From the NCBI GenBank assembly GCA_963693055.1, contig OY843751.1:4800001-4864000 (forward strand): a DNA stretch of 64,000 bases. Reading direction: 5' to 3'. Origin of the DNA: a bacterium (GTDB lineage: Bacteria > Zhuqueibacterota > Zhuqueibacteria > Residuimicrobiales > Krinioviventaceae). The notes beneath the pieces were generated by a model that saw only the letters and a program-made list of their open reading frames with translations, searched no databases and had not been told where the DNA came from. Every line of letters starts with the position of its first letter. Position 1 is the first letter of the stretch. The position numbers were made by a program, and so were the translations under genes. Below, piece by piece: positions 4,841 to 18,827 of the stretch.

Positions 4841-6277
4841 ATGAAGAAAAAAGCATTAACATCCCTATCGATCTTGCTGACAATTATCATTGTCATTACA
4901 ATCCCGGTAATCTGGTTGCTAAATCCATCAACAGATAAAAAAGATGCCTGGGCCAATGTACCGAAAAAATTACCACAAACCAATCATGCCGATCTTTTGA
5001 AAGGACCCTTTAAAGACGGGCCCTCTGTAACCCGGGCGTGTTTGGAGTGTCATCCTGATGCCGGCGATCAGGTTATCCACTCTGCTCATTTTACATGGGA
5101 AAGCCCGGCAATAAAACTACCCGGTAGAGATGAGCCGGTTGTTTTGGGCAAAAAGCACGCAATGAATAACTTTTGCATTGGCATTACTTCAAACTGGCCC
5201 CCTTGCACCGCCTGCCATACCGGTTACGGCTGGGAGGACGATTCTTTTGACTTTACCAATCAGGAACTCATCGATTGCCTGGTCTGTCACGACCATTCAG
5301 GCCAGTATGTAAAAAGCAAAGGCGGGTACCCGGCACCGGATGTAGATCTTGTTGCTGTAGCCAAAAGTGTGGGTCCCACAACCCGAGACAACTGTGGCGG
5401 TTGTCACTTTAGAGGTGGTGGTGGTAATGCAGTAAAACATGGTGATTTGGATGAAAGTCTCTACAATCCCAGCGAGAATATCGATATCCACATGGGAAAA
5501 CATAACTTTTTATGTACCGATTGTCACCAGACCGAAAACCATAATATTAGAGGCCGATCCATATCTGTAAGTGCTGACAATGAGAATCAGGTTTATTGTA
5601 CAGATTGCCATGACCAAAAGACGCACAAAGATGAACGCATTAATACACATACAGCTTCGGTTGCCTGCCAGACTTGTCACATTCCTCATGCCGCAGTCAA
5701 AGAAGCAACCAAAATGCATTGGGACTGGTCTGAAGCAGGTAAAGATTTACCAGAAAATCCTCATGAATATTTAAAGATCAAAGGTCGTTTTGTATATGAA
5801 AAAAACATTCAACCCGATTATTTCTGGTTTAATGGAAATGCCAAACATTACGTAATGGGAGACAAAATAGATCCCACTCAACCCACATTGATGAACGAAC
5901 CGGATGGCAGCATCAAAGATCCCAATGCCAAAATCTGGCCGTTTAAACTACATACCGCTAAACAAATTTATGACCCGGTTAACAATTATTTACTGGTCCC
6001 CAAAACTTTTGGTAAGGGCGGTTTCTGGACTGAATTTGACTGGCAAAAAGCCGCAGAACTGGGTTCCGAAGCAACAGGTCTTGATTACAGCGGCCAATTT
6101 GGATTTACCAATACGGTCATGTTCTGGCCCATAACCCATATGGTGGCATCAAAAGACAAGGCATTGCAATGTATTGATTGTCACGGAGAAAGTGAAAATA
6201 CAAGAATGAACTGGTCTGCGTTGGGTTACGATGGCGACCCCATGTTGACTGGTGGAAGAAAAAATAAAAATCTATAA
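4841..6277 (+). CDS. otr: Octaheme tetrathionate reductase (Otr) family c-type cytochrome
   Basis: N-terminal membrane anchor; 8 CXXCH motifs (CLECH, CTACH, CLVCH, CGGCH, CTDCH x2, CQTCH, CIDCH); Otr motifs GKKHAMNNFC, GYGW, GGGGNAVKHGDL. Confidence 0.9.
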   Translation: MKKKALTSLSILLTIIIVITIPVIWLLNPSTDKKDAWANVPKKLPQTNHADLLKGPFKDGPSVTRACLECHPDAGDQVIHSAHFTWESPAIKLPGRDEPVVLGKKHAMNNFCIGITSNWPPCTACHTGYGWEDDSFDFTNQELIDCLVCHDHSGQYVKSKGGYPAPDVDLVAVAKSVGPTTRDNCGGCHFRGGGGNAVKHGDLDESLYNPSENIDIHMGKHNFLCTDCHQTENHNIRGRSISVSADNENQVYCTDCHDQKTHKDERINTHTASVACQTCHIPHAAVKEATKMHWDWSEAGKDLPENPHEYLKIKGRFVYEKNIQPDYFWFNGNAKHYVMGDKIDPTQPTLMNEPDGSIKDPNAKIWPFKLHTAKQIYDPVNNYLLVPKTFGKGGFWTEFDWQKAAELGSEATGLDYSGQFGFTNTVMFWPITHMVASKDKALQCIDCHGESENTRMNWSALGYDGDPMLTGGRKNKNL

Positions 6278-6294
6278 ACTATAAAGGATTCGCA

Positions 6295-8928
6295 ATGCTA
6301 AGCAAACGCTTTATATTTTTCACAGTCTTATTCACACTACTGACAGGCCAGGTTTTTTCCGAATCCCTTCACCCGGATGTAAAGTTGCTTGACCAAAACG
6401 GGAACCCTGTAATTTCCAGTGATTTACCTGTATCAACCATAAAAACCTGTGGAACCTGTCACGATGCTGAATACATTGCATCAAACAGCTATCACAGTAC
6501 TGTTGGTTTTGATAAAAATGCTGACGATGAAACTATTGATCCCGGCTTCTTTAACAATTGGGACCCTGTCATCTACCATCGTATGATGAATGATGAACTC
6601 AAAAATGGTAACCTGGGGCTTGCAAACTGGGTCATGACCTATGGTAAAAGACACGTAGGTGGCGGCCCGGCTGAATTCAACCAGTCAATGAAAAAATTGA
6701 ACGCACCCAATGCTCAATCAAGCAACACTGAAAGTCACTGGCTCAATCCCGAAACCAAAACAATAGAACCCTGGAATTGGCAAAACTCGGGAATTGTTGA
6801 AATGAACTGTTTTCTATGCCATACTCCAAATCCAGACAACCAGGCAAGAATGGATGCGCTTGAACAAGGTCACTTTAAATGGGCAAACACGGCAACATTA
6901 ACAGGTATTGCGATTAAAAATGGTGACCATTATCGCTACAATACCAACAGTATAAATCCGGATGGCACGGTAAAACGATCTGTTTTTCAGGTTACCGATC
7001 CATCGAATGAAAATTGCGGTCTCTGTCATGGACTGGTTAAAGACGATGAATCTCACCCTGTTGTGCTTACCGAATGTACTCCAGAAAATTGGTCTACTAT
7101 GACTACCGGACAGATTTTCTCACCGCAACGGATATCTGACAGTGGTTTGAATCTTGAAAATAAATCAGAGCTGGCTTATGCCTGGGATGTGCATGCGGAA
7201 AGACTTGTAAATTGTGTGGATTGCCATTTTTCAATCAACAATCCCATCTATTATCAGGAATCTGCACTTACACGGCCCGCACACCTGAATTTTGATGCAC
7301 GCCGGATGGATATTGATGATTACCTGTTAAGACCCAGTCACGACTTTGCATTCGGACCCGGCAACCATAATCCTGAAAGCAATACTTTTAGCAACAATAT
7401 GAGAAGATGCGAGTCTTGCCATAATATTGAGGCAACACACGATTGGTTACCATACAAAGAAAGACATATGCAAACCATGACTTGTGAATCCTGCCACATC
7501 CCTCATATTCGTTCAACTGCCAAACAAACTGTTGACTGGACAATGATCCACCCCGATGGTACACCAAGAACCGAATGCAGAGGTACAGATGCATCGGCCC
7601 CTAACAGCAACACATTGTTAAAAGGATACCAGCCCGTACTTTTGGGACGCATTGAACCGGATGGAAGCTCACGTCTTGCCCCCTATAACCTGATCACCTC
7701 TTGGTTTTGGGTACAGGGTGAAAAAGAAGCGCCTGTATTGTTGAGCGACCTGAAAAAAACGCTGTTAAATGGCAATGATTTTGATCCTCAGGTTGTTAAG
7801 TACCTGGATGCGAATCAAAATGGGTCTCTTGAAGACAGTGAAATGGTGTTAAACTCGGCTGAAAAAATAGATTTTATCAAATCCCGACTTTCATCTATAG
7901 GCTTGATAAATGTTGCAATCAAAGGTGAGGTGAATCCTTACGGACTACACCACAACGTTACGCATGGTGACTGGACAACCCGTACATGTGAATCCTGTCA
8001 CAGTAACAAATCTAAAATTTCTCAGCCCATGGTTCTTGCAAGCAGCTTTCCCCCGGTTGTTCCGCAAATGATAAATCGTGGTTCAATAATCCCCAAAGGC
8101 AAAGTAATCACAAAAAATAAAGTGCTGGTCTTTAAACCAGCGCCGGACAGAAATGGATACTATATTTTGGGTCACGACAAAAGTCTGGTTGCGCAAATAA
8201 TTGGCGCCTTGATATTTATATCAGTTATTATAGGAATAACCATTCATGCAACTTTGCGTGTAATTGCAACGGCAAAACACAAACATGAAAAAGGTCCCTT
8301 TAAAAGTATTTACATGTACACGGTATATGAAAGATTCTGGCATTGGATGCAGGCAATAGCCATTATTGGTTTAATTTTTACTGGCTTGACTATCCATTCT
8401 CCATTGATATTCAAGTTTATGCCCTTCCATGTTGCGGTAATTATTCACAATGTACTGGGTTTTATTTTACTGGGTAATGCATTTTTAGCTGCTTTTTATC
8501 ATTTTTCAAGTGGTAAAATCAAAAACTATTTGCCCGAACCTAAAGGGTTTTTCAGTCAGGCTATAGATCAGACCCTGTTCTACATCAAGGGCATTTTCAA
8601 AGGTCAGCCTCACCCCTTTGAAAAAGATGTTGATAAAAAACTGAATCCGTTACAAAAGATAACCTATCTTATTATATTAAATGCATTGCTGCCAATTCAA
8701 ATCATTACCGGCATTCTGATATGGGGAGCACAAAGATGGCCGGCATTGGCAGAATCGTTGGGTGGCCTGCTAATATTGGTTCCTATACATTCACTTGTTG
8801 CATGGTTCTTTGCTGCTTTTCTCATGCTGCATATATATTTAACCACTACCGGTTACACAGCTACATCTGCTATTCAGGCGATGATAATCGGATGGGAAAA
8901 AGTTCATACAAATCATAATGGAGATTAA
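6295..8928 (+). CDS. Heptaheme c-type cytochrome fused to a C-terminal HyaC/FdnI-type cytochrome b
   Basis: Signal peptide; 7 CXXCH (CGTCH, CFLCH, CGLCH, CVDCH, CESCH x3); membrane domain with YERFWHW, NPLQKITY and His ligands. Confidence 0.85.
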   Translation: MLSKRFIFFTVLFTLLTGQVFSESLHPDVKLLDQNGNPVISSDLPVSTIKTCGTCHDAEYIASNSYHSTVGFDKNADDETIDPGFFNNWDPVIYHRMMNDELKNGNLGLANWVMTYGKRHVGGGPAEFNQSMKKLNAPNAQSSNTESHWLNPETKTIEPWNWQNSGIVEMNCFLCHTPNPDNQARMDALEQGHFKWANTATLTGIAIKNGDHYRYNTNSINPDGTVKRSVFQVTDPSNENCGLCHGLVKDDESHPVVLTECTPENWSTMTTGQIFSPQRISDSGLNLENKSELAYAWDVHAERLVNCVDCHFSINNPIYYQESALTRPAHLNFDARRMDIDDYLLRPSHDFAFGPGNHNPESNTFSNNMRRCESCHNIEATHDWLPYKERHMQTMTCESCHIPHIRSTAKQTVDWTMIHPDGTPRTECRGTDASAPNSNTLLKGYQPVLLGRIEPDGSSRLAPYNLITSWFWVQGEKEAPVLLSDLKKTLLNGNDFDPQVVKYLDANQNGSLEDSEMVLNSAEKIDFIKSRLSSIGLINVAIKGEVNPYGLHHNVTHGDWTTRTCESCHSNKSKISQPMVLASSFPPVVPQMINRGSIIPKGKVITKNKVLVFKPAPDRNGYYILGHDKSLVAQIIGALIFISVIIGITIHATLRVIATAKHKHEKGPFKSIYMYTVYERFWHWMQAIAIIGLIFTGLTIHSPLIFKFMPFHVAVIIHNVLGFILLGNAFLAAFYHFSSGKIKNYLPEPKGFFSQAIDQTLFYIKGIFKGQPHPFEKDVDKKLNPLQKITYLIILNALLPIQIITGILIWGAQRWPALAESLGGLLILVPIHSLVAWFFAAFLMLHIYLTTTGYTATSAIQAMIIGWEKVHTNHNGD

Positions 8929-8934
8929 TAATAA

Positions 8935-9465
8935 ATGAAAACCAACCAAATTGAAAACGGAAAACCGTATATGAATCCCTATCTTGCAGGCACCCTGCTT
9001 GGGATCGTACTCTTTTTAGCGTTTTTCATTACAGGGAACGGATTGGGTGCATCGGGTGGTATTAATAGAATCCTACTCTATCTGGAAGACGCGGTAGCTC
9101 CAGCTCATGTAGACCGTGTACCCTATCTTTTAAGCATGGCCGGTGGAGATAAAAACCCACTAGATCACTGGATCGTCTTTTTAACCATAGGCACCTTGCT
9201 GGGAGGTTTTATATCCGGTTTAATCCATAAACGGGTAAAGTTGAAAACAGCCAAAGGCCCCAATATCACCAACTGGCAGCGCTGGGTTTTAGCGTTTGCG
9301 GGAGGTATATTTATGGGGTATGGCGCCAGAATGGCCAGAGGTTGTACTTCGGGTCAGGCACTCTCCGGAGGAGCGGTCTTGTCCGCCGGAAGCTGGGCGT
9401 TCATGTTTGCGGTTTTTGCAGGCGGTTACGCGGCTGCATGGTTTGTTAGAAAAATCTGGAATTAA
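8935..9465 (+). CDS. YeeE/YedE sulfur-compound transporter (half-size)
   Basis: NPYLAG, GLGASG, GARMARGCTSGQ. Confidence 0.9.
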   Translation: MKTNQIENGKPYMNPYLAGTLLGIVLFLAFFITGNGLGASGGINRILLYLEDAVAPAHVDRVPYLLSMAGGDKNPLDHWIVFLTIGTLLGGFISGLIHKRVKLKTAKGPNITNWQRWVLAFAGGIFMGYGARMARGCTSGQALSGGAVLSAGSWAFMFAVFAGGYAAAWFVRKIWN

Positions 9466-9483
9466 AAAAGGACGGATAATAAA

Positions 9484-10710
9484 ATGGCACCTTTCCCTAT
9501 AGATGCAATTCTTGGTAAATTTGGAGCTTATCTGATCTATCTGCTGATCGGAGTAGGATTTGGCTCTGTATTAGAAATGGCAGGTTTTGCCCACTCGCCC
9601 AAACTTGCCGCTCAATTTTATCTCAAAGATATGACGGTCTTAAAAGTCATGTTTACGGCTATTATCGTTGCAATGACACTCATATTCCTCTCATCAGGGT
9701 TAATGCTGCTCGACTTTGACAAGCTGTGGGTAAACCCCACCTACCTCTGGCCCGGCATTATAGGTGGTTTGATTATGGGTGTGGGTTTTATTATTGGTGG
9801 TTTTTGCCCGGGAACTTCATTGGTTGCGTTAGCAACATTAAGAGTAGATGGCTTCTTTTTTGTACTGGGTGCAACCACCGGAATCTTTATCTTTGGAGAA
9901 ACTGTTAGCAATTACACAGGCTTTTGGACATCTTCCTACCTGGGACGCATAATTCTGCCAGAAGTCTTTCATGTACATACAGGTGTAATAGTCTTGCTTG
10001 TTATACTCATGGCTCTTTTTATGTTTAAAGGTGGAGAGATGTTAGAGGCCGCCATTGGTAAGAAAAAGGTCTCTAAATCAAAGTGGAAAATTGCCGGTGC
10101 CTCGGCTTTGGTGATTTTGTCATTACTGGGTATAGTAATTGGACAACCATCTGTGCAGGACAAGTGGGAAATGGTCTCCAAAACTAAACAGGTGCTTTTG
10201 GATGATCGCCAGGTCCAGGTTCATCCCGGTGAGTTGCTTGACCTGATGTACGATGACAGCAAAAATCTGGTATTGCTTGATGTTCGGCCGGAAAAAGACT
10301 ATAATATATTCCACATAAAAAACGCAAAAATGGTTGAATTGGATGATATCCCTCAATACGCTTCAGAGCTGCTGCATGAACCGGCAAATACAGTTATTGT
10401 AGCCATTTGTAATAATGAAAAACTATCTACTACAGCATGGAAATGGTTAACCGCGCTTAATGTTCCCAATGTTTACATTCTTGAAGGTGGTATCAACAAC
10501 TGGCTAGACATTTTCGGTCACGAAGGTCATGAAAGCTGTTATACAGTTAAAGATAAAGACGATACTTCTTTGCGGCATATTTTCAATTCAGCACTAGGGT
10601 CACGTTACGATGCGGCAGAACCGGAACCGGAACATCAGGAATCAAAACTTTTATTTGAACCCAAAGTAAAAATCGCCACCCAGGTAAGACGTCAAGGTGG
10701 CTGTGGATAA
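9484..10710 (+). CDS. YeeE/YedE domain fused to rhodanese domain, C-terminal GGCG
   Basis: GGFCPGT in the membrane domain; LLDVR..HI, AICNNE, ILEGGINNW rhodanese motifs; ends RRQGGCG. Confidence 0.88.
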   Translation: MAPFPIDAILGKFGAYLIYLLIGVGFGSVLEMAGFAHSPKLAAQFYLKDMTVLKVMFTAIIVAMTLIFLSSGLMLLDFDKLWVNPTYLWPGIIGGLIMGVGFIIGGFCPGTSLVALATLRVDGFFFVLGATTGIFIFGETVSNYTGFWTSSYLGRIILPEVFHVHTGVIVLLVILMALFMFKGGEMLEAAIGKKKVSKSKWKIAGASALVILSLLGIVIGQPSVQDKWEMVSKTKQVLLDDRQVQVHPGELLDLMYDDSKNLVLLDVRPEKDYNIFHIKNAKMVELDDIPQYASELLHEPANTVIVAICNNEKLSTTAWKWLTALNVPNVYILEGGINNWLDIFGHEGHESCYTVKDKDDTSLRHIFNSALGSRYDAAEPEPEHQESKLLFEPKVKIATQVRRQGGCG

Positions 10711-10740
10711 AAAAAAAGCCCTTTAAAAGGGCTTTTTTTT
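10709..10740. terminator. Bidirectional terminator between convergent genes
   Basis: aaaaaaaagccc-tttaaaa-gggctttttttt. Confidence 0.9.
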
Positions 10741-11332
10741 ATTTCAAAGGCTGTACAGGAATTCCCCTCCTGAACACTCTGATTTTTCCATTATCAAAAT
10801 TTAATTTTAGTGACAAAAGCAGCATTTGCGCCAGAGGATCTTTATCTGCATTATACGCATTCACCATAACACCAAAACGTACAGATTTCGATTGTCCCGA
10901 TTCTATCAGCAGATCAACATCTGCCTGGGTATCAAAATTTTGTTCAGTTAATGATTTTATTAACCGGGGATTTTGCTGAATTTCATTTATTGATGGTTTT
11001 ACCAGAAAAGCTTTGCTTGACAAATTTATATCCAGAATTTTTTGTCCCGCTAAAGGAATCAAAAATCCTGCGCCATCAGACATCTTTTCTATAGATTTTA
11101 ATGAAAAACTGGCCGGTCCCTGATTTGTGATGCTGGTTTCATATATGGCTAAAAATGCCCACGATTGGGTAGCCTCATCGTAAACCGGTGTCATCAAAGT
11201 ATTACGTTCTTCAAGTTCAATATCAGACAATGCTAATTGAAAAGCCTGGTTTGCCTTAAACAGCCCCATTACTGCTATTCCCAGGGCTATAATTGCAATG
11301 GCATATAAAGTAATCGTTTTCCACTTCATCAA
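10739..11332 (-). CDS. Hypothetical protein with N-terminal membrane anchor
   Basis: 197-aa ORF, hydrophobic N-terminus, no recognised motif. Confidence 0.7.
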   Translation of the reverse strand: MMKWKTITLYAIAIIALGIAVMGLFKANQAFQLALSDIELEERNTLMTPVYDEATQSWAFLAIYETSITNQGPASFSLKSIEKMSDGAGFLIPLAGQKILDINLSSKAFLVKPSINEIQQNPRLIKSLTEQNFDTQADVDLLIESGQSKSVRFGVMVNAYNADKDPLAQMLLLSLKLNFDNGKIRVFRRGIPVQPLK

Positions 11333-11382
11333 TAAATCTCCATTTAAAATTTTAATAATATAGGAAAACGAAAAATAAATTC

Positions 11383-12210
11383 CTATTTTATTAATAATAT
11401 TTTATGAAATGCAAACATCTGCCCCAAATTGACGCGCACGTAATACACACCAGATGGAACAGAATTCCCGTTCATATCAATCCCAGACCATAAATATTCA
11501 TACGAACCCATTTCAAGCTTTCCAAAATCATTAAATGATATTTTATTACTCAAAATATCAAAAATTTCAAGATGGACATTTCCACTTTTGGTAATATCAA
11601 AATGTATCCGCGTTGAATTGTTAAAAGGATTCGGATAGTTCTTAACAACCAGATTCTGGTTAATCGGATATTCCGGTTCTTCAATTTTTGTATCAATATT
11701 CCGTACAACTGCACGGAGGAGAAAATCCAGGTCTTCTCTCAGCCACCAGCTTCAGCAGTCGGTATCGTATGAATGCAGGCTTATGGGTTCCTGATCATCA
11801 ACACCAATTGCAAAAAAGTTGTTTGGATTTTGTGACAATACAAAAAAGAAATCATCATCAACATTTAGGTCCAAAGCACCGAGATCATATTCGTTCCACC
11901 CTGCATGCCCACCAGATATTACAAACGGCTCAACAAGATCATTTCCATCCCAGGGTTTACCATCCAAATCAGCAGGTAATATTGACAACTTGAATGCCGT
12001 AGTCTCATTTACTTTGGGCATATAATATTTAATTTTCATCAATTTTGCAGGGTATTGAGAGGGAGAGAATTTTGTAACTACATAGATACCATTTTGTCCC
12101 ATTATAAAAGTATCGTGCGCAATTCCATTATCATAATACAACTCTTCATCAGCAAAAGTAACCGCAAAAAGGGTCAAAACCCATAGACACAAAATTTTAG
12201 TTATTTTCAT
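11383..12210 (-). CDS. Putative secreted selenoprotein (in-frame TGA at 11752-11754, Cys-Sec) with C-terminal FlgD/T9SS-A-like domain, 275 aa
   Basis: Signal peptide; ...SYDTDC-TGA-SWWLREDLDFLLRAVV...KNYPNPFNNSTRIHF...WSGIDMNGNSVPSGVYYVRV...HKILLIK-TAG; 122 open codons after the TGA. Confidence 0.7.
11700..11740 (-). promoter_or_regulatory. Candidate bacterial SECIS hairpin(s) downstream of the in-frame UGA
   Basis: Hairpin 1: GAGAAGA-CCUGGA-UUUUCUC (+14 to +33 after UGA). Hairpin 2: UCCGUGC-AGUU-GUACGGA (+35 to +52). Neither is a perfect consensus match. Confidence 0.45.
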
Positions 12211-12235
12211 CCAGGCCTCTTAAAAAAATCAGATA

Positions 12236-12274
12236 TAAACACCAAAGGCCCCATAAAGGGGCCTTTGGTGTTTA
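12236..12274 (-). terminator. Strong hairpin/terminator after the PorV-like gene
   Basis: 17-bp perfect inverted repeat taaacaccaaaggcccc-ataaa-ggggcctttggtgttta. Confidence 0.8.
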
Positions 12275-12295
12275 ACAACTCATTCGAAAATGAGA

Positions 12296-13315
12296 TTATT
12301 TCATATAGATGCTCCAGGAGATTCTATGTACAGAGCCAAAAAGTTCACCAAAGTCACCGTAGGAGTAATCAAATTTTACACCATAGTTACCCAGGGGTTT
12401 ATTGACACCAACACCAAAAGTCAATCCTTCTTCATCATAGTTAAATTTGTAACCACCGCGCAGGAACAGCATATTACTCATACCATATTCAGCACCAAGG
12501 TGAATACGTTCAGAGTAATCTCTGGGGTGAATTGCATCTACTGCAACTGTCAGTTTATGCATATCACTATCTGCGAACAAGGTCATTACATCCATTGCCA
12601 TACCAATATTGAACATCAAAGGCAATTCAAAGCGTTCAAACACATAACGACCCTGGCGGGAAAAGTTGCGGATTGACATAGCAACGCGCAAATCTTTCCA
12701 ACCTGTGTAATACAGGGTACCAAAATCAAATGCATTTACAGTTTGTTCATTTTGTACAACGGTTTCACCATAGACTTCATGCAAGATCAAGCTTTCATAC
12801 AAGTCCTGTTTAACCATTTTAATCTGGGCACCGATAGAGAATTGGTTACTGATACGACGTCCATAAGACAATCCTACAGCATATTCACCAACTTCAAAAT
12901 CACCAAGGTCTTCATAACCCTGATTTCTCAGTATAGGATCAGCTCCATCATACGGACGTGTTTCTGTCATTGTACCATAGTCCATATAGATCAAGCTAAC
13001 ACCAAAAGTACCCCAGTTTTTAAAACCGTAAGCAATACCACCGGCATAATGTTTAATGTCGGCAATCCAATTGGTTTGGTTCATTGCAACTTCAAAGCCA
13101 TCAACAAAAGCGAGACCCGCCAGATTCGAAAACATAGATGTAGCATCATCAGTTACGGCTGCACTGGCACTGCCCATTGCAGAAGCACGACCACCTACAT
13201 CAATTTTTAAAAACGGCATACCCGTTTGACCTAATTTATCAATAGCTTGTGACGCAGGACTGAGTCCCAATATTAATAGCGCCGTCACCAGCAAATAAAA
13301 AACAGTTTTTTTCAT
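12296..13315 (-). CDS. PorV/PorQ (UPF0164) family outer membrane beta-barrel
   Basis: Signal peptide, FLKIDVGGRASAMGSA, NLAGLA, LFLRGGY, C-terminal HRIS. Confidence 0.85.
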   Translation of the reverse strand: MKKTVFYLLVTALLILGLSPASQAIDKLGQTGMPFLKIDVGGRASAMGSASAAVTDDATSMFSNLAGLAFVDGFEVAMNQTNWIADIKHYAGGIAYGFKNWGTFGVSLIYMDYGTMTETRPYDGADPILRNQGYEDLGDFEVGEYAVGLSYGRRISNQFSIGAQIKMVKQDLYESLILHEVYGETVVQNEQTVNAFDFGTLYYTGWKDLRVAMSIRNFSRQGRYVFERFELPLMFNIGMAMDVMTLFADSDMHKLTVAVDAIHPRDYSERIHLGAEYGMSNMLFLRGGYKFNYDEEGLTFGVGVNKPLGNYGVKFDYSYGDFGELFGSVHRISWSIYMK

Positions 13316-13351: not shown

Positions 13352-15409
13352 TTATTTAACCACTACAAATTTGCCAATTGCAGTTTCACCCGTGGGGCTG
13401 CCTTGAGGACCATCTAATTCTTCAACAACAAACAGATAGATACCGCTCACAATTCTCATTGAAGAGAAAGTGTCCTGACGGGTCCATTCTTCGTCACCTG
13501 TTCCTTCGTTATGATACAGAGTCTGTACCAGGTCACCTGTCATTGTGTAGATATGGATATTACAATAAGCAGGTGTATTGAGGAATTTAATTTGATCTTC
13601 TTCATATTTGTAGCGGGAAAGGGCATTAAAAGGATTAGGTACAACAACTACATTGTCTTTCCAGTTTGCATCCGGTGAACGTGTAGGTGCAACAGCTTCA
13701 TCAACTCGATTATCTCCGGATTTCAACTGACCGGAACGGTTCAGCAGCATACTGCTTTCGGTTCCATCATTGGTGTACGCGGTTACATAATACCAATAGT
13801 TTTGTCCACGGATCACATCCGTATCAATATAACTATGAGTTGACGCACCAACATCTGCAAGTAAAACAAATGTTGTATCAGTTGGTATAGCCAATTCCGC
13901 TGGGCGGTAATAGTTACGATAGATTTTGAATCCGGCAAGTCCCGGGAAGCCATCAGCTTCTGTTCCCCAATCAATTTCAATTTGATCAGGAACTGAGGTC
14001 AATGTTAATGAGGGAGATGGTGGTGTAGCAGGAACCATCAACTCACCAGTACCCTTGAGAACGTTACTGTTTTCCCAGATTCTTTTCAGCATTCCGGCCT
14101 TTTTAAAAACAGAATCTTTACCGGTATCAATGATCATGTCTTTTTGTACCTGGCTCAGAAAACTACCTTGAACTCCTAGATCCATTACATCATAAGGCAT
14201 TTCAACATTAAGCTGACTAGAGTATCCGGCTTTATAAGCACGACCGGCATCAATAGCCAGACGATGGTTTATAGAACCACCAATGTAAGCAACAACAATA
14301 CGCACATCTTCACCTGGAGCCATCTGGTAAGGACCAAAATGGAAAGAACCGGGTTTTGCTTGTTCTTCTACAGGATTACTCACATGTGCTGCCCAACTGT
14401 CAATCAAGCTGCGATACATACCGCTTGCATCTGTCTGCAGACTGGGGTTAGCTGTATTCCAGGGGCCAGACATGAATTCGTAAATTTCATCATGGGTTGC
14501 TTCACTCAATGAAGGAAGTAACTCACGCTGTGACCAACCGGCTTTATGTGGTTGTGCAGGATCGTCAGTATCATCAGTAGTGCTTTTATCCGCATGAAGT
14601 ACCTGCATACCCATATATTGTGGTTTTTCAAAGTTACCCCAGATCAGATCAGGGTTAGCTTTGTCATCTTCAGGAATTTCAGGTTCATCTGCTTCCCACA
14701 TATAATAGAGACGCAGCGAATCCTGGCCACTTGCGTAACCAGCGCCATAATAATCTGACCACAAGTTACCAGGATAATGATCACCTGTCATCATTTCGGT
14801 TACAATACTAAAATAAACATCATTTTTAGCTTCGTTAGATGCGTTTTCAAAAATCCATTCATAAACAACAAAGTCGTCATATTCTTGATTGGCACACGCG
14901 TAAACCCAACGTTCTACATCAATACCGGTCCAGGTATTCCACTTGCCATAGACCATACCGTCTGCAGGAATATTTTCATCAACCGGGTCGGTTTTGTACT
15001 GAGCGTCAGTCCAGTCACGGCCATCAATCATTCTGATGGGGGGTGCGTATTTGAAAACACGTTTAAAAGCACCACTAACGGGCACAATAACGTTTTCAAT
15101 TTCGGTAAATTTACTTTGTATACCCTGGGCAATTTTATGTTCCCAAGGTACACCATTACCGTCCGTCCAACTCATTTTAACACCAACATTGATACCATTA
15201 ACAGATGAAACTTCTCTGGCATCACTGTCAAGATTTTCATTCCAGGTTTGGGGGTATTGCATTGACATTGCACTGATCGTCTCTCCCGGTGTCACCTGGA
15301 TATCACCGAATCGCAACTGTCTGGTAGACGACTGACCCAATAGTGTTGAATTTATGAGCAACAGCAGAACAAGAACAAATAATCCGCCGTACTTGAAAAG
15401 TTTTTTCAT
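13352..15409 (-). CDS. Secreted protein with FN3-like domain and T9SS-like C-terminal domain
   Basis: Signal peptide; PPSPSL..W..GFKIYR..YYVTAY FN3-like segment; VVVVPNPF..IYTMTGDLV..SGIYLFVVE..GKFVVVK. Confidence 0.8.
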   Translation of the reverse strand: MKKLFKYGGLFVLVLLLLINSTLLGQSSTRQLRFGDIQVTPGETISAMSMQYPQTWNENLDSDAREVSSVNGINVGVKMSWTDGNGVPWEHKIAQGIQSKFTEIENVIVPVSGAFKRVFKYAPPIRMIDGRDWTDAQYKTDPVDENIPADGMVYGKWNTWTGIDVERWVYACANQEYDDFVVYEWIFENASNEAKNDVYFSIVTEMMTGDHYPGNLWSDYYGAGYASGQDSLRLYYMWEADEPEIPEDDKANPDLIWGNFEKPQYMGMQVLHADKSTTDDTDDPAQPHKAGWSQRELLPSLSEATHDEIYEFMSGPWNTANPSLQTDASGMYRSLIDSWAAHVSNPVEEQAKPGSFHFGPYQMAPGEDVRIVVAYIGGSINHRLAIDAGRAYKAGYSSQLNVEMPYDVMDLGVQGSFLSQVQKDMIIDTGKDSVFKKAGMLKRIWENSNVLKGTGELMVPATPPSPSLTLTSVPDQIEIDWGTEADGFPGLAGFKIYRNYYRPAELAIPTDTTFVLLADVGASTHSYIDTDVIRGQNYWYYVTAYTNDGTESSMLLNRSGQLKSGDNRVDEAVAPTRSPDANWKDNVVVVPNPFNALSRYKYEEDQIKFLNTPAYCNIHIYTMTGDLVQTLYHNEGTGDEEWTRQDTFSSMRIVSGIYLFVVEELDGPQGSPTGETAIGKFVVVK

Positions 15410-15473: not shown

Positions 15474-18400
15474 TCAATAGAAATTAATTTTGATACCGAA
15501 AAAGATATCACGTTTTTCCAGGAATGTCCATGGAGTAAACGACGGCATTACGATATAATCTTTGCCGTTGCTGTCTGTTGGGTAATCTCCGGGACGATCG
15601 CCACCTTCAATGTCCAATGAATTCATATAAGCTCTGAATTCACCATTCCACCATTTGTGATCGTTCCATGCCCAGTTTCCATTAACACCTGTGAGAACTC
15701 TGTTATCACCATAAGAATAATCATCGGGATAGGTCATATTCTTGTTATTAAATACGTTAAAAACATCTACGTAAAATACGGTTTCCATGCCCCATTTATG
15801 GAACAGACGTTTGGTGAAACGCATATCTGTTCTTTGGTAGGGACGCCAGCGGATATTGTCTTCTACATATGGAATACCTTTGGGATTCCAGGTGAATACT
15901 TCACCCGCACGCCAATAGTACAAGAAATTCAGGTTCATGTCAGCAAAAACCGGGTAACCTGCAAGCCTGTAACCAAAATCAGCTGGTGTATGGAAATCTA
16001 CATTAACTTTCCAAACCGGGCGAGCAACAGGTTGTGTAATATCAGTATTCCATAATTGATCACCACTATTGGGATCTTCACGGTAATACTCGGTACCGTA
16101 ACGACCGCGGCTTGAGATCATGTATTCATAACTGGTAAAACCGGTTACAAATGTTCCACGACGCAATTCAGCCATCAACTCGACACCACGAATATCGCGG
16201 TACTGGTTGTTTTCCGGGAAACGTACATCCGAACCTTCCATAGGATAGTAACGGATTTCGTTATATTCGTCAGACACGTCTTTATAATAACCGGTAGCGG
16301 TCAACTGGAACATGTCCATTAAATTATGAGCATAGCCCACTTCGTACATGATGGTTTTGGGAGGAACTAAACTGGGGTTACCCAGGTTTGAAATTCTCCA
16401 GCCATCAGTTGTACGTTGGCGATAATAGTACAAATCATACGCACTGGGCCATTTGTAAAAGTGGCCATAGTTAAAAAAGATTTTTGCGTCGTTTGAAATT
16501 GGATGAGAGATACCAACACGCGGGCTTATACGCGCCTGCGTAATACCTTCCCAATTCAACATATCCAGACTGTCAGACTTGCCTGCCTGCAGAAATCTGG
16601 TATAGGGAGATGCGTTGGGATCATTAGGATCAGTATTATTGATCATTTCACCGCGTTTTTGTACGTCCATACGCAGACCCAGGTTTGCAATCATACCCTG
16701 GAATTCAAGTTTATCTTGAACAAACAAGGCACCTGACCAGGGTTTTGCTTTGGCAAAGTACCAGCTACCACCGTTAACGGAGGGATCGATTTCGCCATAT
16801 TCACCATGAATTTTATCATGTTGTAATTCAAAACCGGCTTTAATCTGGTTAAAACGGTTAACCTGACTGGTAACAGCGGCTTTTAATACATATTTACGGA
16901 ATACAGAATTGTTTTCACGCAGGTTACAAGATTCCATACGGTATTCACCAGTCACATCACGCCAGTTCACAGGACCATAGCCCCATGGACCTTCATCGTA
17001 CCAGTAATCACCAATTTTAACACGTGCGTAATTCTGCCAGTTTTCCCAATCATAATCACCATTGTCAATATGTTCCTGGATTTCATCAGCAGTACCTAAA
17101 CGGCCATACTGTAAATGGGTTGCGTTCCATTCATTACCCTGGATTTTAATGGTGTTACGATGATACATATCATGACCTTCTTCAGTCAGCAGATGGCTGA
17201 ATGTAACTTCATAAAATGTTGAAGGAGATAATACGTGCGTAAACTGGAAGCCCATTGAAACACGTTCCTGAACTGCGGTAACGTTACAATAGGGGTACCA
17301 CATTTTGTTTGCGGCAGACATACTGTTGGGAACATCACTTTCAAAACCAGAGCTATTGCTGGAGAAAGCATTGTTGGTAATTTCAATACCAATACCGCCA
17401 CCCTGGCTACCATTTGTACCACTCTGTTTTCCATATAAAAAGTTGAGGTTCAACTTCATAGATTCATTTAAATTTGTGGTTAATTTAAGGTTCGTCAGGC
17501 GATCACGATAATGATCTTGAGGAAAAACACGTGCGTAATATGTTTTTTCTTCTCTATGAGAAGCAAAGAATTTAACACCATTTAAAAATGGAATTGGGCC
17601 GCCAAAAGTAAAGGACCCGACAAAATCACCTTCATCACCATATTCGTACACGTCATCTTCATCGGGATCAATGCCGGTAACATCGGCATTTACCTTACCT
17701 TGTTCTGCAAGGCTCAACAACAATTCTAAATTATCTTTGGATCTGTGGCGCCACAAGTACAGTGCCAGATTTTCATAAGGTTCACCATAGTGGGGATCAC
17801 CAGGTTGCAGGGTACCATTGGTTCCCAAAACCCATTTGGATGAATCCCACCAGTTAGACAATTCAGCACCGCTTGCGTCAACGGGAATACCATTTGCGCT
17901 TACTTCAACACCTGAATATTTGAACCAGCCGGGGAAAAACTGACTTGCTGTACCCACTTCCCCCATGCCACCTTCACGGTAATATCCGGTCCACGCACCG
18001 TCTTTGGCGTAAAGAAACGGGCGTACCAAAGGCGAATCTTTACCATAGATCATGGGACCAAAACCCTTTAAAGCAGCTGGGCTGTATTTAAAATCAATAC
18101 TTCCGGTGTAACGGTCGCCACCTTCTTTGGTAACAACATTGATCAATCCTGAACGAACATTACCATATTCAGCATTGAAACCACCGGTAATAACCTGAAT
18201 TTCCTGCACAGCGTCCATATTAATCTTCATATAAGGACGATTGCGGATTTCATCAGTCATTGCCATACCATCGGTGATCATAGCACCATTGGTATAATCC
18301 TGACCGCGGAAACGCGGGTGAGATGCATTCGCACCAAAACCGGAAATACCAACCTGCGCATGCATTACATTTGCAAGGTCTTTGTATGCAGCATTTTCAA

Positions 18401-18827
18401 GTTGTTCGGGGGAAATAATTTGTTGGGTGCTGGAAACATCGAGGGGAACAATTGCGCGTTCTGCAACTACTGTAACTTCCTGAGAAGCTTCCAGAACTTT
18501 TTCTTCGAGTTTAAAATCTGCGACCGTTGTGCGGTCAACGTTTACACCTACTCCTGTAAGTTTAAGAGGTGTGTAACCAATCATTGTAGCGGTTAATGCA
18601 TATTGTCCTGGACGGATATTAATAATAAAATAATAACCATCAAGGTCTGTTGCAGCACCCATCTGGGTACCTTCAATCACAACATTAACGCCAGGGAGTG
18701 GCTCCCCTGTTTTTGCGTCTGTTACTCTACCTGATATTTTACCGGTTGTTGCCGAAAAACCCGTACCGGCAATTAACAGGCCTAGTATAAATACACAGGC
18801 GAGTTTAAATATTACACTTCTCTGCAT
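15474..18827 (-). CDS. TonB-dependent receptor with carboxypeptidase-regulatory-like N-domain
   Basis: TGKISGRVTDAKTGEPLPGVNV, GGFNAEYGN..SG.INVVTK plug motif, SPRVGISHP, C-terminal aromatic residue. Confidence 0.93.
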   Translation of the reverse strand: MQRSVIFKLACVFILGLLIAGTGFSATTGKISGRVTDAKTGEPLPGVNVVIEGTQMGAATDLDGYYFIINIRPGQYALTATMIGYTPLKLTGVGVNVDRTTVADFKLEEKVLEASQEVTVVAERAIVPLDVSSTQQIISPEQLENAAYKDLANVMHAQVGISGFGANASHPRFRGQDYTNGAMITDGMAMTDEIRNRPYMKINMDAVQEIQVITGGFNAEYGNVRSGLINVVTKEGGDRYTGSIDFKYSPAALKGFGPMIYGKDSPLVRPFLYAKDGAWTGYYREGGMGEVGTASQFFPGWFKYSGVEVSANGIPVDASGAELSNWWDSSKWVLGTNGTLQPGDPHYGEPYENLALYLWRHRSKDNLELLLSLAEQGKVNADVTGIDPDEDDVYEYGDEGDFVGSFTFGGPIPFLNGVKFFASHREEKTYYARVFPQDHYRDRLTNLKLTTNLNESMKLNLNFLYGKQSGTNGSQGGGIGIEITNNAFSSNSSGFESDVPNSMSAANKMWYPYCNVTAVQERVSMGFQFTHVLSPSTFYEVTFSHLLTEEGHDMYHRNTIKIQGNEWNATHLQYGRLGTADEIQEHIDNGDYDWENWQNYARVKIGDYWYDEGPWGYGPVNWRDVTGEYRMESCNLRENNSVFRKYVLKAAVTSQVNRFNQIKAGFELQHDKIHGEYGEIDPSVNGGSWYFAKAKPWSGALFVQDKLEFQGMIANLGLRMDVQKRGEMINNTDPNDPNASPYTRFLQAGKSDSLDMLNWEGITQARISPRVGISHPISNDAKIFFNYGHFYKWPSAYDLYYYRQRTTDGWRISNLGNPSLVPPKTIMYEVGYAHNLMDMFQLTATGYYKDVSDEYNEIRYYPMEGSDVRFPENNQYRDIRGVELMAELRRGTFVTGFTSYEYMISSRGRYGTEYYREDPNSGDQLWNTDITQPVARPVWKVNVDFHTPADFGYRLAGYPVFADMNLNFLYYWRAGEVFTWNPKGIPYVEDNIRWRPYQRTDMRFTKRLFHKWGMETVFYVDVFNVFNNKNMTYPDDYSYGDNRVLTGVNGNWAWNDHKWWNGEFRAYMNSLDIEGGDRPGDYPTDSNGKDYIVMPSFTPWTFLEKRDIFFGIKINFY

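Follow-up and report, generated by a model that had tools for sequence, protein, structure and literature searches.

Animal thioredoxin reductases are flavoproteins with a C-terminal Cys-Sec pair, and the first-pass annotation likened the Cys-Sec pair of the locus described here to that of such enzymes. The vicinal Cys-Sec dipeptide is shared. However, the KSB1 protein has an unrelated fold and is not a flavoprotein, its pair is internal, and its Cys varies within the family. Because the pair does not define the family (see below), the analogy stands as a resemblance of motif only.

Bacterial selenoproteins with a Cys-Sec (CU) pair that rely on SelB and a bSECIS include SaoL (NF040728), HgcA (NF040863), MbdU (NF045648), SaoC (NF040734) and KCU-star (NF033934), as listed in Table 1 of PMC13188914. 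SaoC is likewise exported and exists in CC and CU forms, according to the accessible part of bioRxiv 10.1101/2022.07.06.499078. The KSB1 gene resembles these CU selenoproteins in its in-frame UGA following a Cys codon, its Cys-Cys homologues, the hairpin within its coding region and its truncation by gene callers. It differs from them in fold, in the internal position of the pair at a hairpin tip, in its T9SS-type tail, in the optional first Cys and in its tandem-hairpin signal. With T9SS type A cargo (TIGR04183/PF18962, PF13860) the protein shares a signal peptide and a sorting domain, and its genome encodes SprA, PorU and PorV; unlike such cargo, its cargo domain bears Sec and its tail is made only after read-through of the UGA. 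Finally, it has the beta-sandwich of the Cwp84 lectin-like domain (PF18560) in common, here without an attached protease domain. We know of no Sec in the Cwp84 lectin-like/PF18560 family.

We compared the protein with catalogued selenoprotein families by HMM or by description, and found no match in Pfam, NCBIfam 20.0 or Table 1 of PMC13188914. None of the 119 families in that table is described with a FlgD, T9SS or lectin-like domain, and at E<=0.1 the 23 aligned members are hit by none of the NCBIfam selenoprotein models; for these members NCBIfam 20.0 gave only tail-type models and weak matches. The accessible text and four supplements of deep-Sep (PMC12013277) hold no mention of T9SS, FlgD or KSB1, and neither do section 11 and one possibly incomplete supplement of BSepDB (PMC13326102). 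A literature search for selenocysteine or UGA together with T9SS sorting or type IX secretion, with most subscription journals outside its reach, returned nothing relevant. This is very likely an uncatalogued selenoprotein family of uncultured KSB1 bacteria, whose SECIS layout departs from the consensus and whose genes keep company with one particular partner system in the genome. It would add a fold that is not listed among the 119 prokaryotic families of Table 1 of PMC13188914, and it would place selenium at the outer surface, reached by T9SS-type export, where bacterial selenoprotein chemistry has barely been described.

The in-frame TGA and its homologous column

The window analysed is a 64,000-nt stretch of contig OY843751.1 (positions 4,800,001 to 4,864,000), and coordinates refer to the window unless a prefix is given. 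The selenoprotein gene occupies 12210-11383 on the minus strand and encodes 275 aa with TGA read as Sec, as judged from translation and homologues. Translation of the window bears out the frame described in the first-pass annotation, namely 152 codons up to a TGA that follows a Cys, and then 122 sense codons to a TAG. The TGA (11754-11752) is codon 153 and lies immediately 3' of the TGC of Cys152. The resulting Cys152-Sec153 pair (TGC TGA, 11752..11757, minus strand) holds the sole Cys/Sec positions of the mature protein. The segment after the TGA had also been said to lack a nearby start codon; this holds for ATG (earliest at codon 234) and TTG (earliest at codon 220), but a rare CTG start lies four codons 3' of the TGA.

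The complete 6.5-Mb genome encodes tRNA-Sec together with selA, selB and selD above curated cut-offs, so the full set of Sec genes expected from the first-pass reading is in place, and its own selD carries an in-frame TGA. In KSB1 MAGs, selABD but not selC has been reported, in the accessible part of PMC9012183; in contrast to those MAGs, selC is present here. Among 15 relatives picked from the homologue search we found selA in 15, selB in 14 and selD in 13, and the corresponding counts for the seven related Sec-form genomes are 7/7, 6/7 and 5/7. Because selA occurs in 15/15, including genomes with Cys or non-Cys forms, the machinery permits Sec reading but does not prove it.

Five further TGAs of the genome lie in frame between stretches with coding signal and lack a Cys/Sec motif (G000:C1:3240300(+), 3474901(-), 932615(+), 2667098(-) and 2230497(+)); they are possibly nonsense changes or adjacent genes. 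Evidence from conservation is needed because the genome holds such codons, some perhaps nonsense changes. A scan of PNP-type tail motifs in the genome (n=212) found a TGA upstream, before a hard stop, in 66; two passed the filter, and a long open stretch on both sides was seen only for the 12210-11383 gene, a pattern beyond what chance would give. A first genome-wide read-through screen was too insensitive, missing both this gene and selD. The second, which does not amount to a full selenoproteome, ranked the gene 5th of 22, along with selD and a UshA-like gene. The latter has a PCG-TGA (CxU) motif and a canonical hairpin, and lies just 3' of another PorV-family gene (G000:C1:3291968, minus strand).

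An exhaustive homologue search returned 90 proteins. Besides the product of the gene itself, 13 of these end one column before the TGA and six read through with Cys-Cys, while the remaining matches are Cys-free domain copies, many within larger surface proteins, or weak matches. One of the six Cys-Cys forms is the paralogue in the same genome (HDCCGW). A profile search gave 38 clusters, 35 of which end at the TGA column, with one full-length Cys-Cys form and two ending elsewhere; the profile was built from 10 truncated entries and, with its length window, is biased to truncated forms, and the stop codon of most truncated database entries is deduced from the protein end instead of being read in DNA. 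The 35 truncated entries finish with Asp-Cys (29), Asp-Gly (3), Asp-Ala (2) or Ser-Thr (1). By comparison, a word-index search with the single N-terminal domain found the gene alone, and the family was recovered by the exhaustive and profile searches.

Matches were present in 31 of the 167 genomes of the phylum. The column is TGA in eight genomes (source included) from five families, the frame running on via DxxLRAVVR into the tail, and Cys in four other genomes of the phylum as well as in the paralogue of the source genome. A degenerate DNA pattern, blind to Ala-Sec and Thr-Sec forms, gave 112 matches, of which 100 were discarded as chance (no profile match, no PNP tail); the 12 kept are eight repeats of known genes, three new TGA genes from metagenomes and the DNA for one Cys gene. 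The totals are 11 distinct TGA genes, all with DNA, and seven full-length Cys-Cys homologues. Conservation extends to both sides of the column. Trp, Arg, Gly and Ser are absent from it in all close homologues, and the only sequences that deviate are distant non-Cys outgroup domains. The tree is poorly resolved, with Sec and Cys forms interleaved.

The vicinal CU pair pointed out in the first-pass annotation is found in this protein and in 9 of the 11 Sec genes with DNA, but it is not a family trait. The two remaining genes lack an adjacent Cys: L017 (NGA-U), whose product P0006 has no other Cys in the N-domain, and L019 (CYCT-U). Since these are Ala-Sec and Thr-Sec forms, and since six of the 35 truncated entries end in Gly, Ala or Thr, the Cys-Sec pair cannot define the family; the conserved residue is the Sec and the preceding Cys is not conserved.

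We counted synonymous/nonsynonymous codon changes in two genome pairs. The first pair gave 23/10 upstream, 2/0 in the SECIS region and 10/17 in linker plus tail, and the second pair 43/18, 1/3 and 24/28, respectively; linker and tail are free of stops in both. By these codon counts the tail is genuinely constrained, though less so than the part upstream.

RNA hairpins downstream of the UGA

Neither the RNA hairpins nor the conserved gene cassette described below appears in the first-pass annotation; both came out of the follow-up analysis. Two 7-bp hairpins are present in the 60 nt 3' of the UGA in 11/11 Sec genes. Hairpin 1 (11719..11738, minus strand) has a variable loop and a stem starting 13 nt 3' of the UGA, and hairpin 2 (11700..11717, minus strand) has an AGUU loop 41 nt 3' of the UGA. 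RNAalifold recovers both unaided. In the aligned stems 97.4% of cells are paired, against 45-59% in slid controls, and nine cells carry changes on both sides, with 0/500 shuffles as high; these covariation counts overstate independence because the sequences are related.

We then recoded each gene synonymously, holding the protein fixed, with 400 recodings per gene. The summed hairpin energy was matched by 0-9 of the 400 recodings in each of the 11 Sec genes and by 76-400 in each of five Cys genes (the source paralogue left out). Taken individually in the Sec genes, hairpin 2 was matched in 0-19/400 and hairpin 1 in 9-76/400 recodings. The codon that closes hairpin 2 encodes the Arg after RAVV, a residue shared by the 11 Sec forms and missing from every Cys form.

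The consensus bSECIS places its loop 16-37 nt from the UGA with a G in the first two loop positions (section 5 of PMC13188914). Hairpin 1 has its loop in the canonical place in 11/11 genes (20-24 nt from the UGA) and an early-loop G in 4/11; with an MFE of -7.5 or below required as well, it passes all three canonical tests in 3/11 members. In the source gene its loop is CCUGGA and its energy -5.4 kcal/mol, outside the canonical bSECIS model. Hairpin 2 combines a consensus loop (AGUU in 10, GGUC in 1) with consensus energy in 11/11 genes, and its distance of 41-44 nt breaks the 16-37 nt spacing in all of them. Neither hairpin is fully canonical, therefore, since hairpin 1 follows the G rule in 4/11 and hairpin 2 is off in spacing in 11/11. 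The family thus differs from the consensus bSECIS in that its consensus loop lies 41-44 nt from the UGA and is preceded by another conserved hairpin. Rfam gave no match at gathering score over the selenoprotein gene.

Which hairpin binds SelB can be judged from other genes. A UCCG..AG(G)UU..CGGA hairpin occurs at canonical distance 3' of the UGA, in a different codon phase, in six genes of a second tail-bearing selenoprotein family, WUPxC. Because those genes carry a like hairpin at canonical distance, we favour hairpin 2 (AGUU) as the somewhat likelier SelB-binding SECIS. On the other hand, the selD genes of the phylum have single hairpins at the canonical position whose loops vary and in some cases lack an early G, so that hairpin 1 alone could suffice. 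In the mechanism that we propose, SelB-tRNA(Sec) would act at codon 153, and hairpin 1 would shorten the 41-nt spacer to hairpin 2. If this is true, bacteria would possess a second SECIS class, one that searches built on the consensus would overlook. About 12.6% of bacterial selenoprotein entries lack a canonical SECIS (section 11 of PMC13326102), and the tandem hairpin may serve as a model for part of them.

Two readings without Sec have to be weighed against these data. One takes the TGA as a nonsense mutation, an assembly error or a codon reassigned to Trp or Gly, and a few other in-frame TGAs of the genome do resemble nonsense changes; however, the conservation data already refute it, the same TGA being present in 11 genes from five families of the phylum and metagenomes. 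Contigs from two runs of a single sample, which may be the source sample, show 0 differences to the window over 11200-12500, which disposes of an assembly error, and a relative from another study has 107 differences over about 1160 nt (~9%), none of them at the TGA. The code is not reassigned, as the first-pass annotation had maintained: TGA terminates 592 of the 2920 long ORFs of the genome and is an ordinary stop, and the sole UCA-anticodon tRNA called is the tRNA-Sec. The other reading makes the TGA a true conserved stop, giving a 152-aa protein ending in Cys and a tail that is vestigial or translated on its own. Every member here is cut short by gene callers, and several genes have a TTG, GTG or CTG four codons downstream, but that start codon is not conserved, being ATT or GTA in some genes. 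Moreover, the stop would come before the final conserved strands (DxxLRAVV) and deprive the sandwich of them, full-length Cys orthologues exist, the hairpins occur in TGA genes only, and the separate tail, lacking a signal peptide, would not get out of the cell. We consider a true stop very improbable.

Conservation of the UGA, its alignment with Cys and the covarying pair of hairpins behind it make reading as Sec very likely. The genome and family show the marks of a bacterial selenoprotein, with selA, selB, selC and selD, a UGA conserved against Cys with conservation on both sides, and a selected downstream hairpin. Decoding would rest on the TGA/Cys column, the Sec machinery and the selection on RNA structure in Sec genes only, and insertion of Sec at codon 153 by SelB-tRNA(Sec) is very likely from these sequence data. 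For decoding together with synthesis of an exported 275-aa protein, we estimate a probability of about 0.9. The selenoprotein reading of the first-pass annotation is thus strongly supported, and every refuting condition named there was decided in its favour. Gene callers split nearly every Sec member in two.

Predicted fold and probable export of the protein

A predicted Sec-pathway signal peptide comprises residues 1-20 (12151..12210, minus strand), ending ...VTFA. Its basic N-terminus and hydrophobic core were judged by eye from the sequence, and residues 3-14 form a helix in the model. Residues 21-171 (11698..12150, minus strand) make up an unnamed beta-sandwich domain, as defined by the model and Foldseek, and residues 189-275 (11386..11646, minus strand) a FlgD-Ig/T9SS type A-like C-terminal sorting domain. 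Pfam recognises the tail alone and gives no match over the N-terminal domain. The tail scores 29 bits for FlgD_ig (PF13860; cut-off 27) and 28.3 for Por_Secre_tail (PF18962; cut-off 27), in agreement with its first-pass assignment, and 23.5 for TIGR04183 (cut-off 23); all three scores are marginal.

We predicted the structure with Sec modelled as Cys. The mean pLDDT is 88 for the whole protein and the pTM 0.83 for the domain alone. The model consists of an N-terminal helix, an all-beta domain, a flexible linker and an Ig-like tail, and the turn that joins predicted strands 147-150 and 155-158 carries Cys152-Sec153. The closest solved fold is the Cwp84 lectin-like domain (PDB 4ci7; Foldseek TM 0.71 by query, 13% identity). 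Foldseek with the two-domain model gave poor matches, mostly at a TM of about 0.2. No sequence match to a solved structure was found for the domain, and the PF18560 Lectin_like profile did not match it, leaving a similarity of fold only. In the Atlas, with the Cys homologue P0003 as query, unnamed clusters came first, and the nearest named family was PF18560, below the naming bar. A thioredoxin fold with UxxC or CxxU is not what the model shows: it is all-beta, with no Trx among the listed Foldseek matches, in keeping with the beta-rich, non-thioredoxin domain of the first-pass annotation. The Cys-Sec tip is predicted to be exposed in the beta-hairpin turn of this lectin-like sandwich. The scaffold has many relatives, and these are devoid of Cys.

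According to the accessible part of PMC11285876, further FCB phyla may possess T9SSs, and the tail is clipped or anchored by PorU. Searches of the genome turned up SprA, two PorU above cut-off and 24 matches to the PorV family; GldM was not found in the genome by a search whose control was also silent. The sorting domain above cut-off and the signal peptide are those of T9SS type A cargo, with the scores marginal and the peptide judged by eye. We propose that the signal peptide would take the protein across the inner membrane and that the tail would direct it to a SprA/PorV/PorU T9SS-like route, where PorU may clip or anchor it. Export to the surface through such machinery is probable. Because the export tail is encoded 3' of the UGA, selenium supply would gate export.

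Genomic context and possible function

Upstream of the selenoprotein gene, all on the minus strand, lie a TonB-dependent receptor (15474..18827), a 685-aa uncharacterised exported protein with Fn3 and a C-terminal sorting-like domain (13352..15409) and a PorV/PorQ-family gene (12296..13315), in this order. The same cassette precedes the Sec gene in 8/8 Sec genomes, once with an intervening gene and once split over two contigs, and it also precedes two of the three extra metagenome Sec genes, the third contig being too short. The best hits of the cassettes of relatives return to this window among many paralogous cassettes, and the genome itself holds many receptor-cargo-PorV cassettes. The PorV subfamily (E<=1e-95) is present in 14 of the 167 genomes, including all 12 with a CU/CC gene, although these counts cover related, non-independent genomes. 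As for the two genomes without the family gene, the contig of one ends at the apparent gene start and the other, 97% complete, lacks it. The 685-aa protein is highly conserved and has no family assignment; a structure sequence search gave weak Fn3 matches only, and its Atlas look-alikes are mostly from Fidelibacterota, also from Ignavibacteriota and Poribacteria. Between the PorV gene and the selenoprotein gene is a 17-bp terminator-like inverted repeat (12236..12274, minus strand), a hairpin that may separate the selenoprotein gene from the cassette transcript. The repeat is perfect, and hairpins like it are present on further contigs from the runs mentioned above.

The neighbours of the Sec forms are mostly sugar-related (LacI, aldolase, GH28). 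LacI regulators and sugar-acid enzymes recur as neighbours. Two Cys-Cys forms lie directly 3' of an ArsP permease, with ArsR or ArsC and TolC: one has ArsR upstream and an ArsE-type thioredoxin nearby, the other has ArsC next to it. These ars-linked forms are divergent (27-28% identity). The Cys-Cys paralogue of the source genome (273 aa; G000:C1:2356259-2357078, minus strand; L178) is in an ArsR-ArsP operon, and 3' of it are two transposase-like ORFs, a ProC-like gene and an MTH895/ArsE thioredoxin. Three Cys forms stand beside an LVIVD-propeller/Ig/UxxC-redoxin/tail selenoprotein gene, one of them inside a cassette, and one Cys form adjoins another tail protein. Members of the WUPxC family, which are split by TGA, comprise a signal peptide, an LVIVD propeller, an Ig domain, a WUPxC redoxin and a FlgD/T9SS tail (L175:8819-10885(+), L176:1822-4023(+), L174 and L221-L224). 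TGA-containing matches to this family were found in 7/167 genomes of the phylum.

At the surface, the Cys-Sec pair would sit at the exposed beta-hairpin turn of the lectin-like sandwich. Its selenolate, with the neighbouring thiol where present, would capture ions of the As(III), Hg(II) or Cu(I) type, and the protein would thereby serve as an accessory to a single TonB-dependent import cassette. Where the redoxin gene is present, the exported UxxC redoxin would keep the Cys-Sec protein reduced. We tentatively favour such soft-metal(loid) binding by the Cys-Sec tip because of the ars-operon homologues, the lone-Sec forms and the metal roles of catalogued CU selenoproteins, which include SaoL, HgcA, MbdU and a CopZ-family form (Table 1 of PMC13188914). 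Against it, the ars-linked genes are divergent Cys forms, the Sec-form neighbours are mostly sugar-related and the possible terminator hairpin intervenes. Alternatively, the Cys-Sec pair of the same selenoprotein could be a surface redox catalyst or switch, forming a selenylsulfide or reducing peroxides or disulfides, and recycled by a thioredoxin-fold partner. The vicinal Cys is kept in 9/11 Sec genes, the three Cys-Cys homologues named above directly adjoin an exported UxxC redoxin gene with the same tail, and most characterised selenoproteins are redox proteins (section 7 of PMC13188914). Yet the protein lacks a thioredoxin fold, the Ala-Sec form without other N-domain Cys (L017/P0006) cannot form an internal selenylsulfide, and the WUPxC redoxin was not found in the source genome with that query; we judge a redox role in place of metal capture the less likely of the two. 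Metal binding and redox cycling are compatible.

A role in glycan or partner binding, with the lectin-like domain holding the substrate of the TonB cassette and Sec acting as a nucleophile or forming an intermolecular Se-S or Se-Se link, would likewise replace metal capture only. The lectin-like fold, the cassette neighbours (LacI, DHDPS-family aldolase, GH28, sulfatase) and the presence of the family in 12/14 genomes with one PorV subfamily speak for it. However, no carbohydrate function has been shown for the Cwp84 lectin-like domain (accessible part of PMC4089489), a glycan role is at odds with the neighbouring ars operons and redoxin genes, and the selenoprotein gene is missing from one 97%-complete genome that carries the cassette. 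We hold this role to be quite improbable. The whole arrangement, a KSB1 surface selenoprotein with a T9SS-like route, a TonB-cassette partner, a lectin-like scaffold and a tandem SECIS with a distal AGUU SelB site, is put forward tentatively. Since CU, lone-U and CC forms all exist in nature on the same small scaffold, Sec can be compared directly with Cys.

Rfam over 10 neighbourhoods gave tRNAs only and no riboswitch. BtuF-like ABC transporter and probable methionine synthase genes lie 3' of one Sec gene (L171:9160-16401), a region with no cobalamin riboswitch at gathering score. At 4841-10710 on the plus strand, genes for an octaheme tetrathionate-reductase-family cytochrome, a multiheme/cytochrome b protein, YeeE/YedE and YeeE-rhodanese converge on the locus; we rejected this operon as a partner, as it adjoins the gene only in a same-genus relative. 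Downstream of the selenoprotein gene, at 10739-11332 on the minus strand, lies a 197-aa gene of no known family, homologues of which occur near the Sec gene in L143, L168 and L170.
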